Source: a virus (Duplodnaviria > Heunggongvirae > Uroviricota > Caudoviricetes). From it: a stretch of 64,000 nt of DNA. Shown here in pieces: positions 1-64,000 of the stretch. The translations under genes and the position numbers were made by a program. Every line of letters starts with the position of its first letter. The stretch's first letter is position 1. The notes below the pieces were generated by a model. The model ran no database searches. It was not told where the DNA came from and saw nothing but the letters and a program-made list of their open reading frames with translations. The stretch is from the IMG/VR virus record IMGVR_UViG_3300032007_000013; one strand, written 5' to 3'.

Positions 1-480
1 GATAGTTAGGCTAAAGCTTTTAGTCATATACATTTCGTAAAAAAGAAAAAAATTCCAGAAGAAGAAAAAGAAAAAATTATAAAAAGTTTAGAGAATAGAA
101 AAACAGCTCAATTACGTTAGCTTCTTGAAACAATTATTTTAGCTGAAAAGCCAAAAGAAGGTACTTTTGTAGATAATTGGATTAAATGGGGAGTAGGATT
201 TATGGATGTTTCATAGACTTTAGATGGAAATTTTCCAAATACAATTTTAGAAGTAAAACGAGATGGTGAAAAGATAAATCATCCAACAGTGAAACCAGTT
301 AAATTATTGGAACATTTAATTAAATTATTTTCAAAAGAGAATGATGTTATTTTGGATTGTTTTATGGGAAGTGGTAGTACTGGTGTTGCTGCTTTAAATA
401 CTAATCGAAATTTTATTGGTATTGAATTAATTCCTGAATATTATTAGATTGCTTTATCTCGATTAAAAGAAAAAAAATAA
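1..480 (+). CDS. DNA methyltransferase, C-terminal fragment (5' end outside window); contains 3 in-frame TAG
   Basis: Frame-1 translation reads ...NHPTVKPVKLLEHLIKLFSKENDVILDCFMGSGSTGVAALNTNRNFIGIELIPEYYQIALSRLKEKK*. This is the conserved C-terminal SAM-binding region of N6/N4 MTases. TAA stop at 478-480. Confidence 0.65.
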
Positions 481-490
481 AAAAATAATT

Positions 491-558
491 AGACACACAC
501 AGCAACTTTTAAAGATACAATCTTTATGTTATCGGTTCAAGTCCGATTATGTCAGCCA
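491..558 (+). ncRNA. tRNA-like element with intact T-arm (ATCGG-TTCAAGT-CCGAT) and 3' GCCA but poorly paired acceptor and D arms; possible tRNA pseudogene or tRNA mimic
   Basis: T-loop consensus GGTTCAAGTCC followed by a 7-nt acceptor-like strand plus G-CCA. The 5' side AGACACACACAGCAAC motif recurs at 4422 and 4792. No canonical cloverleaf could be built. Confidence 0.25.
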
Positions 559-614
559 TTAATTTGACGTATTATCCAATGGGTAGGATGAAAGAGTATG
601 ATGTGTCTAGATAT

Positions 615-60209: not shown

Positions 60210-60572
60210 ATGTTGAATGAATTATTAAGACGATGTTGGGCATGTCCAGTATGTGGGCGTATCCTATATCGTCCTTTAAAAGGTTATTGGTGTCCATTTT
60301 GTGGGCATAATTTATCTGCTGATGAATAGGAAGATAATTTAGATTTATCAACAAGAATTACTGCTCGTGATGAAAATGGAGTACCATATTATTGTGGAGA
60401 AAGAGGATTTAGACAAAGAACATATGCTCATGATATGGATGTAAATATTGTCGCAGAAATATTAGAAAAACTTTGTCAATATGAAGAAATTGAAGTTGAA
60501 AATGATAAAATTATTAATAAAATAATTGAATCAGGAAATAATGAAATAGAGGTAATAGAGGATGAAGGATAA
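60210..60572 (+). CDS. zinc-ribbon hypothetical protein (120 aa), 1 in-frame TAG
   Basis: CWACPVCG...CPFCG. TAA stop 60570-60572. Confidence 0.45.
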
Positions 60573-62487
60573 AACTTTATATACAGAAGAAAGTATCGAA
60601 TCTTTATCTCCATTGGCGTTTACTCGTTTAAGACCAGGAGTATACGCAGGTGATACGACATATGCTACACAATTGGCTGTCGAAATTTTTTCTAATGCTG
60701 TTGATGAATTTCGTCTTGGACATGGAGATAAGATTGATGTAGATATTAAAGGGCCAAGAGTAAGAATACGAGATTATGGGCAAGGTTTTATCCCTAATAG
60801 TTTTCGTGATGATGGAAAAACAATTCTTGAAGCAGCATTTAGTGTTTTAAATACTTCTGGTAAGTATCGTGAAGATGGTACCTATGAAGGTACTTCATTG
60901 GGTTCTTTTGGTATTGGTTCAAAGATTACAACTTATCTTTCACATTGGCTAGATGCTACTACTTTCCGAGATGGAGAATGGGAAACTGTCCATTTTGTAG
61001 AAGGTGAAACTTATAGCCATGATGGAGGAAAAATTAATCCTGCTGATATGGGAATTAGTACAGATACTACTGGCACAATAGTTGAATGGGAACCAAGTGA
61101 AGAATTTTTTACGCATCCAGGAGTAAATGTAAATGAATTAAAAACTTTATTTAAAACAATAGCTGCTTTATGTCCTGGATTAACTATTAATTTAGATGAT
61201 AATGGTAGTAAAACAACTTATTTTTCTAAAAACGGTATTAGTGATTTAGTTGATGAAGCAGTTGAAGGAAAAGAATTAATTAAAAATCGTTTTGTTATGA
61301 ATTATCAAAATGATAAAAATAAAATTGATATGGTTATGACATATACATCTAACTATTCAATGAATTTAATTCCTTATGTTAATACAGGTTTAACAGCAAA
61401 TGGCCCGCATATCTCACAGATTAAATCTCTTTTAACTCGTGAATTTAATAAATTTTTCCGTGATAAAAAATGGTTAAAGGAAAAAGAAGAAAATCTTTCT
61501 GGTGAAGATATACAAGAAGGACTTTATATTGTATTTAATATTACTGCTCCAAATGTAGCATATGACGCTCAGGTAAAGACAAGAGTCACTAAATTAGAAA
61601 TGACTCCTTTCACTTCAGCAATCGCAGAAGAACTTCGTATCTGGTTTATGGCAAATGAAAAAGATATTAAAATGATTGCTGACAAAGCATTAGGTGCTCG
61701 TAAAGCAAGACTGGCAGCTCAAAAAGCAAGAGATAATGCACGTGAAGGCCAGAAGAAGAAAGAGAAAGCTTTAAAATTTGATAGTAAATTAGCTGATTGT
61801 TATAGTAAAGATCGCAAGAAGTGCGAAATTTACATTACAGAGGGCGATAGTGCAAGTGGTAAATTAAAAGAAGCCAGAGACAATGAATTTCAAGCAATTA
61901 TGCCAGTCCGAGGTAAGATTTTAAATACTCAAAAAGCAACTATTGATAAAATACAGAAAAATGCGGAAATTATGTCAATGATTCAAGCTTTTGGTCTTGA
62001 AATTGATTTAAAAACAATGAAAGTGACATATCATCCAGATAAAATTCGATATGGGAAAATTATTATTATGAGTGATGCTGATGTTGATGGTGCTCATATT
62101 AAAAATTTGTTTTATACTTTTATTTGGAATTTCTGTCCTCAATTAATTCAAGATGGTTATATCTATGCTGGTGTCCCGCCACTTTATAAAGTTACAATGG
62201 CTAAAAAATATTATTATTTAAAGAATAATAATGCTTTAGAAGAATTTCGTAAGAAAAATGCTGGTAGGAATTACATTGTAAATCGTATGAAAGGTTTGGG
62301 TGAAATGGATGCTGAAGAAGTTGAAGAAACTTTAATTAGCCCAGAAGGTAGAATTATTCGTCAAGTTACTGTAAATGATATTCCAACTACTAATAAATTA
62401 TTTGATGATTTGATGGGCACAGCTGTAGTTCCACGTAAATTATATATTAAAGAACATAGTAAAGAGGCTACTTACAATGCAGAGTAA
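60562..62487 (+). CDS. type IIA DNA topoisomerase, ATPase/Toprim subunit (GyrB/ParE-like, T4 gp39-like), 641 aa
   Basis: GHKL ATPase N-terminus and Toprim motif EGDSASGKLKEARD. Confidence 0.75.
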   Translation: MKDKTLYTEESIESLSPLAFTRLRPGVYAGDTTYATQLAVEIFSNAVDEFRLGHGDKIDVDIKGPRVRIRDYGQGFIPNSFRDDGKTILEAAFSVLNTSGKYREDGTYEGTSLGSFGIGSKITTYLSHWLDATTFRDGEWETVHFVEGETYSHDGGKINPADMGISTDTTGTIVEWEPSEEFFTHPGVNVNELKTLFKTIAALCPGLTINLDDNGSKTTYFSKNGISDLVDEAVEGKELIKNRFVMNYQNDKNKIDMVMTYTSNYSMNLIPYVNTGLTANGPHISQIKSLLTREFNKFFRDKKWLKEKEENLSGEDIQEGLYIVFNITAPNVAYDAQVKTRVTKLEMTPFTSAIAEELRIWFMANEKDIKMIADKALGARKARLAAQKARDNAREGQKKKEKALKFDSKLADCYSKDRKKCEIYITEGDSASGKLKEARDNEFQAIMPVRGKILNTQKATIDKIQKNAEIMSMIQAFGLEIDLKTMKVTYHPDKIRYGKIIIMSDADVDGAHIKNLFYTFIWNFCPQLIQDGYIYAGVPPLYKVTMAKKYYYLKNNNALEEFRKKNAGRNYIVNRMKGLGEMDAEEVEETLISPEGRIIRQVTVNDIPTTNKLFDDLMGTAVVPRKLYIKEHSKEATYNAE

Positions 62488-62722
62488 TATTACAAAACTT
62501 CCAGATCATGATGGAAGTATGCGTTATCAAATTTTTTGTCCTAATTGTTCTTATTGGCTTTTTGGAGAAGATATTGGTAGTAAATATTGTCCTCATTGTG
62601 GAGTATCATTAATATGGGATTCTGAAAAAGAAAATTTATTTCATCAAACTAATTATGAACTTAGTTTAAAAGAATATATTTCATGTAAAGAACACCAGAA
62701 TAATAGAGGTATAAATAAATGA
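62477..62722 (+). CDS. zinc-ribbon small protein (81 aa)
   Basis: CPNCS...CPHCG. Confidence 0.45.
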   Translation: MQSNITKLPDHDGSMRYQIFCPNCSYWLFGEDIGSKYCPHCGVSLIWDSEKENLFHQTNYELSLKEYISCKEHQNNRGINK

Positions 62723-64000
62723 TAAGTGATATTCAATTTAATGATTTAACACAAGAATTAGGTGTAAATTTTATAGAGTATGCGGTAGCTGTAAATACGG
62801 ATCGTGCAATTCCTGATGCTAAAAGTGGTTTAAAACCAGTAGCAAGAAGAATTATTTATGATGCTTATGTAACTGGCTGTACTAATAATAAACCACACGT
62901 AAAATGTGCGGCAATTGTTGGAGATACGATGGGCCGTTTCCATCCTCATGGCGATAGTTCAATTTATGGAGCTTTAATTAGGATGTCTCAACCATGGTCT
63001 TTACGTTATCCATTAATAGATTTTCATGGTAATAATGGTAGCCGAGATGGCGATCCTCCAGCCCACTATCGTTATACAGAAGCAAGATTAGCAAAAATAA
63101 CAGAAGATGGCATGCTTGGCGGAATGAAAAAAAAGGTAGTTGATTTTATTCCTAACTATTCAGAATCAGAAGACGAACCAGCTACTTTACCATCCGTTTT
63201 TCCAAATTTACTTTGTAATCCAAATACTGGTATTGGAGTAGCTATTGCTTGTAACTGGGCTCCACATAATTTAAATGAAGTAGCACAAGCTATTAATGAT
63301 TATATAGACGGGAAAGAGCCAATGCTGCCTGGACCGGATTTCCCAACTGGTGGAATAATAATTAATAAAGATGATATTCCTAATATTATGAGAACTGGCC
63401 GTGGCAGTGTAAAAGTCCGTGGAAAATATCATATGGAAGATAATAATATTGTTTTTACAGAAGTGCCATATGGTGTTATTACAGAGCCTTTACTTGAATC
63501 TATTGGTGAATTATGTGATAGTGGAGAGATTCAAGGTATTACAAATATTCGTAATGAAAGTAATAGAAAAAAAGGTTATAGATTAGTTTTTGAATGTGCG
63601 AAAGATGCTAATATTTCTAAAATTATAATGTTACTTTTCCAAAAAACTGATTTACAATCTTCATTTTCTTATAACCAAGTTGCTTTAATAGACAAAACTC
63701 CTGTAGAATTAAATCTTAAAGATTGCTGCAAGATTTATGTTGAGCATAATACAGAATGCATTCGTAAAGAATTAACATTTGATCTCCAGAAAGCGAAAGA
63801 TAGATTAAATATTGTAAATGGTCTATTAAAAGCATTAGAAGATATTGATAATATTATTACTTTAATCAAAGCATCTGAAAGTAGTGCTAAAGCTCGTGAA
63901 AAATTAATTGAGAAATATAACTTTAATGAAGAGCAAGCTAAAGCAATTACTGATATGAGACTTGGTAAATTAGCTGGGTTAGAAAGAATAGAAATTGAAA
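62719..64000 (+). CDS. type IIA DNA topoisomerase, DNA-cleavage subunit (GyrA/ParC-like, T4 gp52-like), 3' end outside window
   Basis: AIPDAKSGLKPVARRIIY...HPHGDSSIYGALIRMSQPW...RYTEARL (active-site Tyr region). Confidence 0.75.
   Translation, partial: MISDIQFNDLTQELGVNFIEYAVAVNTDRAIPDAKSGLKPVARRIIYDAYVTGCTNNKPHVKCAAIVGDTMGRFHPHGDSSIYGALIRMSQPWSLRYPLIDFHGNNGSRDGDPPAHYRYTEARLAKITEDGMLGGMKKKVVDFIPNYSESEDEPATLPSVFPNLLCNPNTGIGVAIACNWAPHNLNEVAQAINDYIDGKEPMLPGPDFPTGGIIINKDDIPNIMRTGRGSVKVRGKYHMEDNNIVFTEVPYGVITEPLLESIGELCDSGEIQGITNIRNESNRKKGYRLVFECAKDANISKIIMLLFQKTDLQSSFSYNQVALIDKTPVELNLKDCCKIYVEHNTECIRKELTFDLQKAKDRLNIVNGLLKALEDIDNIITLIKASESSAKAREKLIEKYNFNEEQAKAITDMRLGKLAGLERIEIE

Follow-up and report, generated by a model that had tools for sequence, protein, structure and literature searches.

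Probable reassignment of UAG to glutamine in one gene class of a ~241-kb uncultivated phage

The 64,000-nucleotide (nt) stretch of IMG/VR record IMGVR_UViG_3300032007_000013, from a virus of the Caudoviricetes, was analysed at its full length and is referred to here as the window. In one class of its genes, the amber codon UAG (TAG in DNA) is best explained as a codon for glutamine (Gln, Q), a reading to which we assign a probability of about 0.93. The phage itself supplies a Gln-type tRNA with the anticodon CUA. It joins the known TAG-to-Gln phages, which use translation table 15 ('code 15'), and the phenomenon itself is well known. The window has a GC content of 30%. Over its first 12.6 kb it matches, at 100% identity, two contigs that were assembled independently and measure 241,262 bp (ENA ERZ27256887 k141_1520457) and 241,184 bp (JGI Ga0256407_10000073); it therefore belongs to an uncultivated phage with a genome of ~241 kb.

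TAG as a sense codon

A greedy set of non-overlapping genes covers 64.0% of the window under the standard code (code 11) and 88.0% when TAG is a sense codon (code 15), whereas the control in which TGA is sense (code 4) reaches 65.5%. An earlier note on this DNA, made from its letters alone, had proposed this comparison of tables 15 and 11, and the outcome is the one it anticipated. Stop-to-stop open reading frames (ORFs) of at least 200 amino acids (aa) increase from 23 (21 kb) in the standard code to 35 (39 kb) with TAG as sense; making TGA sense yields 25, which is no gain. The 98 code-15 ORFs of the window hold 172 in-frame TAG, 398 CAA and 114 CAG codons.

Read-through of single TAG codons alone restores the long ORFs, and frameshifts are needed nowhere. 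The earlier note had described conserved genes as split in the standard code and joined by single in-frame TAGs, and had named insertions or deletions at the junctions as evidence that would count against recoding. The junctions are indeed single in-frame TAGs, and Pfam domains span them in one frame: PIN plus PhoH, Radical_SAM, RuvC, dUTPase, two GT8 glycosyltransferases, GIY-YIG plus NUMOD, and Xan_ur_permease. The endolysin, read in one frame through its TAGs, has five domains (Phage_lysozyme2, Amidase_2, PG_binding_1, ELLD and SH3_3). The HNH and tail-fibre genes likewise become full-length single frames.

The code-15 ORFs end in TAA (75) or TGA (22), with one running off the window edge. 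The earlier statement that TAA and TGA always close the restored genes is partly true by construction, as these ends follow from how the ORFs are defined. TAG falls within the last 15 codons in 14 of 172 cases, compared with 31 of 512 for CAA and CAG. Given the lack of a 3'-end excess and the even spread of TAGs along genes, nothing indicates that genes still end at TAG; a few near-end TAGs, such as those of g10 and g33, are ambiguous. We considered the possibility that TAG acts as a stop in early genes, given the TAG-TAG of g33 and the penultimate TAG of g10. Both the tight packing of genes and the missing 3'-end excess speak against it and make it the less likely reading.

The amino acid at TAG

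The PIN-PhoH protein provides the clearest columns. With TAG replaced by X and 120 homologues aligned, Q occupies TAG positions 210 and 333 in 120/120 homologues, position 211 in 99/120 and position 209 in 82/120. The solved Corynebacterium PhoH (PDB 3B85) has Q at positions 210 and 333, the latter within a DEAQN motif. Among lysin homologues, the share of Q is 36.8% at TAG columns and 41.7% at CAA/CAG columns, compared with a background of 4.2%. TAG 268 of the lysin is Q in 120/120 homologues and also in the PlyL amidase (PDB 1YB0). Over 21 alignable TAG columns, scored against homologues of <70% identity, the mean BLOSUM62 score is 2.02 for Q, 0.88 for E and 0.74 for K. Four TAG columns are invariantly Q among these homologues, and all three that were compared with PDB proteins are Q there as well. 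A PDB search with the RuvC protein returned no match. Overall, Q is the best-fitting residue in the alignment of TAG positions to homologues that the earlier note had suggested as a check.

The protein database translates close relatives with code 15, so Q in these sequences was assigned by a code-15 gene caller and is not independent evidence. Independent support for Gln comes from the PDB proteins, from more distant homologues, from codon exchanges between related phages and from paralogues within the window. In relative L001 (93% nucleotide identity), 28-29 of 31-33 aligned TAGs are kept, depending on the alignment method, and all 6-7 differences are exchanges of TAG with CAA or CAG. In the more distant L005, there are 13 TAG:TAG pairs and 10+16 TAG:CAA pairs, and other partners are scattered noise.

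Within the window, the GT8 paralogues g58 and g59 place TAG (x) opposite Gln in both directions (YVxGVLLL versus YLQGVLLL; KFxIFNQ versus KFQIFNx). The four zinc-ribbon/DUF2726 paralogues g10, g40, g42 and g67 carry TAG at LTNxxFG, WLCxC and DGxxH, with Gln codons opposite. The earlier note had pointed to TAG opposite CAA or CAG in these zinc-ribbon repeats, and the motifs LTNQxFG, WLCQC and DGxQH bear this out. Its proposal that TAG is a sense codon, most likely for Gln, thus agrees with homologue columns, PDB proteins, codon exchange, paralogues and the phage's own tRNA(CUA).

A phage-encoded amber-suppressor tRNA

The Gln-type amber-suppressor tRNA gene lies at 2637-2711 on the plus strand (ARAGORN, 2638-2707; Rfam tRNA, 34.2 bits). 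It has a 1:72 mismatch, G73, an encoded CCA and a bulged T-stem. Its closest match among the 12 tRNAs of the genome is tRNA-Gln(CUG), at 73% identity, with which it has in common the acceptor stem, the 1:72 mismatch, G73 and the encoded CCA. ARAGORN names it 'tRNA-Pyl', a label that is due to the anticodon only. Two tRNA-Gln genes are encoded on the same strand, tRNA-Gln(UUG) at 615-688 and tRNA-Gln(CUG) at 1272-1345, both found by ARAGORN and Rfam. ARAGORN also calls a tRNA-Lys(UUU), and Rfam confirms all ARAGORN tRNAs.

The suppressor recurs in related phages. It is present in 9 of 10 IMG/VR loci that encode a homologue of g4 (39-95% identity), in every case with G73-CCA. Coding density rises under code 15 in every locus known to carry tRNA(CTA), whereas L017, the sole scanned locus found to be without it, shows no code-15 gain (0.850 vs 0.857). 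The neighbouring gene g4 (2249-2593, plus strand) encodes 114 aa with no Pfam or PHROG match and is syntenic with the suppressor in 9 of the 10 diverse related loci.

Rfam models matched only tRNAs across the tRNA region, with no group I intron or ribozyme match even at E<=1. Theta ribozymes, described beside suppressor tRNAs (PMC10879173), were considered and set aside: the tRNAs there mostly lack an encoded CCA, which is encoded here, and no dedicated motif search was made. Just 3' of tRNA-Gln(CUG), about 900 nt (1346-2240) are free of ORFs, with GC-rich stretches and a structured appearance, and have no Rfam match. This region is ~82% conserved in L014, below its flanks, and may be a large non-coding RNA.

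Two gene classes and a promoter element

TAG use is bimodal. Of the 63 genes with 100 codons or more, 33 lack TAG despite holding 176 Gln codons (P about 3e-23, computed at the pooled TAG share of 0.255), and TAG use is heterogeneous among genes (chi-square P = 6e-8). The earlier claim that recoding runs throughout the segment therefore needs correction, as it is limited to one class of about half of the genes.

The TAG-free class includes gyrase B/A (60562-64000), RNase H (59416-59862), RNA ligase (28331-29584), Thg1-like and RlaP proteins (35283-37377), NADAR, AAA_33 kinases, metallophosphatases, adenylosuccinate synthetase and a DUF2828/DUF7788 protein (6912-8411). The block g31-g39 (22960-27196, plus strand) is compatible with the standard code, being TAG-free but for the TAG-TAG in g33. 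Most genes of 44509-53693 are also TAG-free, and one TAG falls in the small ORF g80. Short minus-strand ORFs within TAG-free spans (e.g., g75) are probably spurious.

The TAG-containing class includes the endolysin (56469-58928, plus strand, 16 TAGs) and the PIN-PhoH (YlaK-like) gene (55189-56415, plus strand, 7 TAGs). On the minus strand, a virion module (11665-22657) comprises g19 (2 TAGs), g21 (5), g22 (4), g23 (8), the Gp10_C-like g28 (3) and a tail fibre (17780-22657) with 13-14 TAGs. Inside this span, the holin (14503-14934, 1 TAG) and the permease (15207-16448, 3 TAGs) are encoded on the plus strand. Most of the minus-strand virion genes are of 'unknown function' in PHROGs, so they are called 'structural' here on the strength of the tail fibre, Gp10_C, the holin and their position. 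The class further holds, all on the plus strand, a dUTPase (9555-10250, 2 TAGs), a RuvC-like resolvase (10263-10754, 8) and a radical-SAM gene (10) with two GT8 glycosyltransferase paralogues (4 and 9; together 37764-40917).

Six homing-endonuclease-like genes also belong here and are among the most TAG-dense. They are an HNH gene (2800-3528, plus strand, 8 TAGs; phrog_10822), a GIY-YIG/NUMOD gene (34435-35265, plus strand, 6 TAGs), a zinc-ribbon repeat gene with a DUF2726 nuclease domain (6147-6875, plus strand, 6 TAGs) and its three paralogues at 27338-28324 (9 TAGs), 29677-30669 (10 TAGs) and 43594-44349 (3 TAGs). The earlier note had the gene coordinates right, as well as the TAG counts of the HNH and dUTPase genes, whereas its counts of 11 for RuvC, 16 for radical SAM, 7 for GIY-YIG, 6 for PhoH and ~17 for the lysin are superseded by those given above. 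The tail fibre, which the note gave as nine fragments, is a minus-strand ORF with the 13-14 TAGs noted above.

The two classes also differ in composition. TAG-free genes have a GC content of 32.4% versus 29.0% in TAG genes, CAG makes up 34% versus 8% of their CAA+CAG codons (Fisher P = 4e-10), and the AAG share is 25% versus 7%.

A 34-nt sigma-70-like promoter element (TTGAAA-N17-TATAAT; TTGAAAATTTTAAAAAAATATTATATAATATATAT) occurs in seven near-identical plus-strand copies, found by a mismatch search, compared with 0 expected (2168-2202, 4374-4408, 22899-22933, 25774-25808, 40914-40948, 46242-46276 and 48424-48458). It matches 11 of 12 consensus positions. TAG-free genes lie directly 3' of all seven copies; the copy at 2168 precedes TAG-free g4 and then the suppressor tRNA. 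The gene classes are unusually clearly parted by TAG use, codon bias and a repeated promoter element. Looser variants of the element occur upstream of g50 (33924) and g79 (50647). A different sequence, TATATATAATAGAA (2758-2771, 27296-27309 and 29631-29644, plus strand), immediately precedes three homing-endonuclease-like genes that are rich in TAG, g6, g40 and g42. The gene for the TAG-free RNA ligase lies between g40 and g42.

We also noted a dense set of RNA- and tRNA-repair-type genes, all TAG-free (22960-24062, 28331-29584, 32578-33018, 35283-37377, 42629-43501 and 51007-53693). The set consists of the RNA ligase (PF09414 plus a PHA02142 OB domain), the Thg1-like protein, RlaP, NADAR, two AAA_33 kinases and four metallophosphatases.

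An interrupted second CUA-type tRNA gene

A second CUA-type tRNA gene, missed by ARAGORN, lies at 3604-3728 on the plus strand (Rfam tRNA, 35 bits over 122 nt, 3604-3725). It is interrupted between anticodon nucleotides 35 and 36 by an insert of 49 nt (3640-3688), so that the gene reads TGCCTTG...CGGGT-CUCU, insert, AAA-ACCTG...CGGGGCT-G-CCA. The insert is preceded by U and folds into a 7-bp stem and a T-arm-like hairpin, followed by A-CCA; it looks, on this account, like a tRNA minihelix. When it is removed, the anticodon loop becomes CUCUAAA, and the predicted spliced form, ...GGGUCUCU joined to AAAACCUGG..., shares 78% identity with the CTA suppressor that L018 carries intact. As the insert sits in the anticodon, this second tRNA cannot decode as transcribed.

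Relatives have other inserts at precisely this position. In L013 (4523-4646) and L025 (1646-1771), the insert belongs to the 49-nt type but differs in its stem sequence, and in L009 (1439-1589), L014 (1952-2102) and L030 (311-462), it is 75 nt long and near-complete as a tRNA-like structure. The L030 gene has homologues without an insert in L018 and L022, and the three together fix the insertion site. Across six sequences, compensatory changes occur at 6 of the 7 insert-stem pairs, with 99.4% of cells paired; none of 500 shuffles attained these values. The stem covaries over five or more versions of the insert, and there is an allele that lacks it; the structure is therefore under selection rather than debris. 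Neither the 3' exon of the window type nor an insert-free allele of the window's form of interrupted tRNA turned up in searches of IMG/VR; the insert-free homologue comes from the more distant relative L018. In L015 (92% identical), a tRNA-Gln(UUG)-like gene (3749-3902) has a ~80-nt complete tRNA-like insert (GTCGATA...TATCGGC-T-CCA) in its anticodon loop, unlike the window's own tRNA-Gln(UUG), which is intact.

Inserts of this kind are known but unexplained: 'enigmatic' tRNA introns, one of which looks like a tRNA, were reported in Lak megaphages (Devoto et al., PMC6784885). The feature here is of the same type, an anticodon-loop insert that folds as a minihelix, with insert-free alleles elsewhere.

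Could the interruption gate the code switch? The position of the insert inside a suppressor-type anticodon, with a phage RNA ligase and RNA-repair genes nearby, suggests a switch gated by RNA processing of the interrupted tRNA, a speculative idea that we consider improbable as matters stand, and in which excision of the insert is itself putative. RNase P would cut at the insert's 5' end, a further cut would follow its CCA, and the phage RNA ligase (g41) would rejoin the halves. A second amber suppressor would then arise only after phage enzymes accumulate. If true, such gating would supply the timer for UAG=Gln translation that has been missing so far, and the interrupted suppressor-type tRNA offers a concrete handle on the trigger of the code switch during infection.

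Other unusual tRNA genes

Two further tRNA genes of the window are atypical. A tRNA-Leu(UAA) gene (4911-5372, plus strand) is split between nucleotides 34 and 35, the site classically occupied by group I introns, by an intron of 375 nt. U is the last base of the exon and G that of the intron, which holds two direct repeats of about 100 nt; Rfam returned no group I match for it. The spliced tRNA folds into a perfect cloverleaf, and the intact tRNA-Leu of L017 matches it at 84% identity. At 4819-4890 (plus strand), a tRNA-like gene (Rfam, 39.9 bits) has an 8-nt anticodon loop (CTTGTTAA; ARAGORN anticodon 'tgtt') and a weak acceptor stem, and is identical in L015. This gene may encode a frameshift-suppressor-like tRNA, or it may be in decay.

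Relatives and probable host

IMG/VR and ENA hold relatives of the phage at 92-93% nucleotide identity. A megablast of 24 kb of the window against 50,697 GenBank phages gave no DNA-level match. In tblastn with PhoH, the nearest cultured relatives are Bacillota phages only, at 35-40% identity, and Bacillota are probably the host group. JGI gene calls on the identical contig (L008) are fragments, and a public protein collection already calls the phage's relatives with code 15; annotation of the contig must use translation table 15.

Some differences between relatives involve homing endonucleases. L001 has an extra GIY-YIG endonuclease gene upstream of gyrB (15390-16133), where the window's site (60495-60568) is empty, and L005 has another between PhoH and the lysin (11229-12038), a site that is likewise empty in the window. 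These extra genes point to active homing-endonuclease turnover. Over 45139-64000 of the window, a single aligned TGG codon is TGA in L001.

Proposed role of the two gene classes and alternative explanations

So, what might the division into two gene classes achieve? A naive host could translate the TAG-free genes once the DNA enters the cell, whereas the TAG genes would give full-length protein only when the suppressor tRNA of the phage reaches a level at which it outcompetes host release factor 1 (RF1). The suppressor would be charged with Gln through the host glutaminyl-tRNA synthetase (GlnRS) or the GluRS/GatCAB route. Recoding would then delay or insulate late, lytic and selfish-nuclease functions, the same model that has been proposed for other code-15 phages. 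The timing is taken from promoter-like motifs alone.

Several points weigh against the interpretation as a whole. Gln at UAG in this phage is deduced at the sequence level, and the homologue tallies of Q are partly circular, with many homologues coming from related recoded phages. Three further points weaken the timing in particular. Pfam scans of the proteins of the window, which represents 64 kb of ~241 kb, found no release factor 2 (RF2), GlnRS or other code-switch protein. Both g4 and the early-type promoter at 2168 lie just upstream of the suppressor, and no clear terminator separates them from it, so a late switch is not an obvious fit. Some TAG-containing genes (dUTPase, PhoH, permease and radical SAM) do not count as classic late genes. 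In addition, g36, an HNH_3 gene, carries no TAG.

Were the TAG-split genes pseudogenes, or the TAGs assembly or sequencing errors in a standard-code phage, fragmentation under code 11 would be accounted for, including that of the JGI calls on the identical contig. This explanation is effectively refuted: the interruptions are only ever TAG, never TGA or TAA, no frameshifts accompany them, and they are kept in a 93%-identical relative or swapped there with Gln codons. In addition, two projects arrived independently at this sequence in their assemblies, at 100% identity over the 12.6 kb compared, and a matching suppressor tRNA is encoded. Reassignment of TAG to another residue (Glu, Lys, Tyr, Trp or pyrrolysine) would fit the ARAGORN name of the CTA tRNA and the variable TAG columns at which K, E, L, C or G is the majority among homologues. 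Such columns, however, act like true CAA/CAG columns, themselves 42% Q in homologues. Q scores far above E and K over the 21 columns, the four invariant-Q columns are matched by Q in PDB proteins at three, and the TAG changes in the closest relative are all to or from CAA/CAG. The suppressor has G73-CCA, its best alignment is to tRNA-Gln(CUG), and no Pyl genes came out of the Pfam scans of the window, so pyrrolysine decoding was rejected and any residue other than Gln is very unlikely.

A different question is whether Gln at UAG carries any regulatory meaning. Under a uniform code 15, TAG would be simply a third Gln codon, and the TAG-free genes would reflect recent acquisition or another mutational history. 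The higher GC content and more G-ending codons of the TAG-free genes could mean another origin or selective regime, the suppressor follows an early-type promoter, and the TAG-rich homing endonucleases are mobile and could come from other recoded phages. Nevertheless, the TAG-free genes follow all seven promoter-element copies and include conserved core replication genes (gyrase, RNase H) that are syntenic in relatives and so are not obvious imports, and other recoded clades show the same split. We regard a uniform code without a regulatory role as rather unlikely, and favour UAG as a Gln codon confined to one gene class.

Comparison with known recoded phages

Insertion of Gln at UAG has a classical counterpart in E. 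coli supE (glnV), a tRNA-Gln in which a CUA anticodon replaces CUG. As a host mutation, supE is weak and has to compete with RF1, whereas the suppressor here is a dedicated phage gene that serves about 170 sense TAGs in 64 kb. Among phages, TAG-to-Gln recoding in gut and animal-associated lineages was reportedly described by Ivanova and colleagues in 2014. The likeness to table-15 phages that the earlier note had remarked upon is apt and finds support in published descriptions of recoded phages.

The closest parallels are the code-15 phages of Borges et al. (bioRxiv 10.1101/2021.08.26.457843), who described the same architecture and a model of the type in which recoding delays lysis. As in those phages, in-frame TAGs occur in lysis and structural genes, replication genes are variably recoded, the phage encodes a suppressor tRNA(CUA), and TAG can be compared against CAA and CAG. 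Concentration of recoding in lysis and structural genes is thus a code-15 feature present here, joined by a promoter element before TAG-free genes, from which timing is inferred. The same study reported large phages with scattered recoded modules and, in Agate phages, a preferentially recoded intron endonuclease (10.1101/2021.08.26.457843). Recoded modules are scattered here as well, ~241 kb is within the size range of those large clades, and the homing endonucleases are preferentially recoded as in Agate phages. Differences from these phages are the six homing-endonuclease-like genes among the most TAG-dense, the second, interrupted CUA-type tRNA gene, and the lack of RF2 within the 64-kb window, although RF2 is present in only some code-15 phages and is not a required feature (10.1101/2021.08.26.457843).

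Decoding of UAG as Gln is also common to crAss-like phages, for which proteomics has confirmed code 15 (Peters et al. 2022, PMC9523058). Those phages belong to a different lineage with Bacteroidota hosts and ~100-kb genomes, whereas the nearest cultured PhoH here is from Bacillota phages. Lak megaphages (Devoto et al. 2019, PMC6784885) likewise combine TAG recoding with a CTA suppressor tRNA and many tRNAs, and their tRNA introns resemble the insert described above. Lak genomes, however, are ~540-550 kb, encode RF2 and come from phages of Prevotella, and the tRNA-like insert of the ~241-kb phage differs in lying within the anticodon of a suppressor-type tRNA. The window thus adds to the recoded phages a large phage, probably infecting Bacillota, with homing endonucleases among its most heavily recoded genes.

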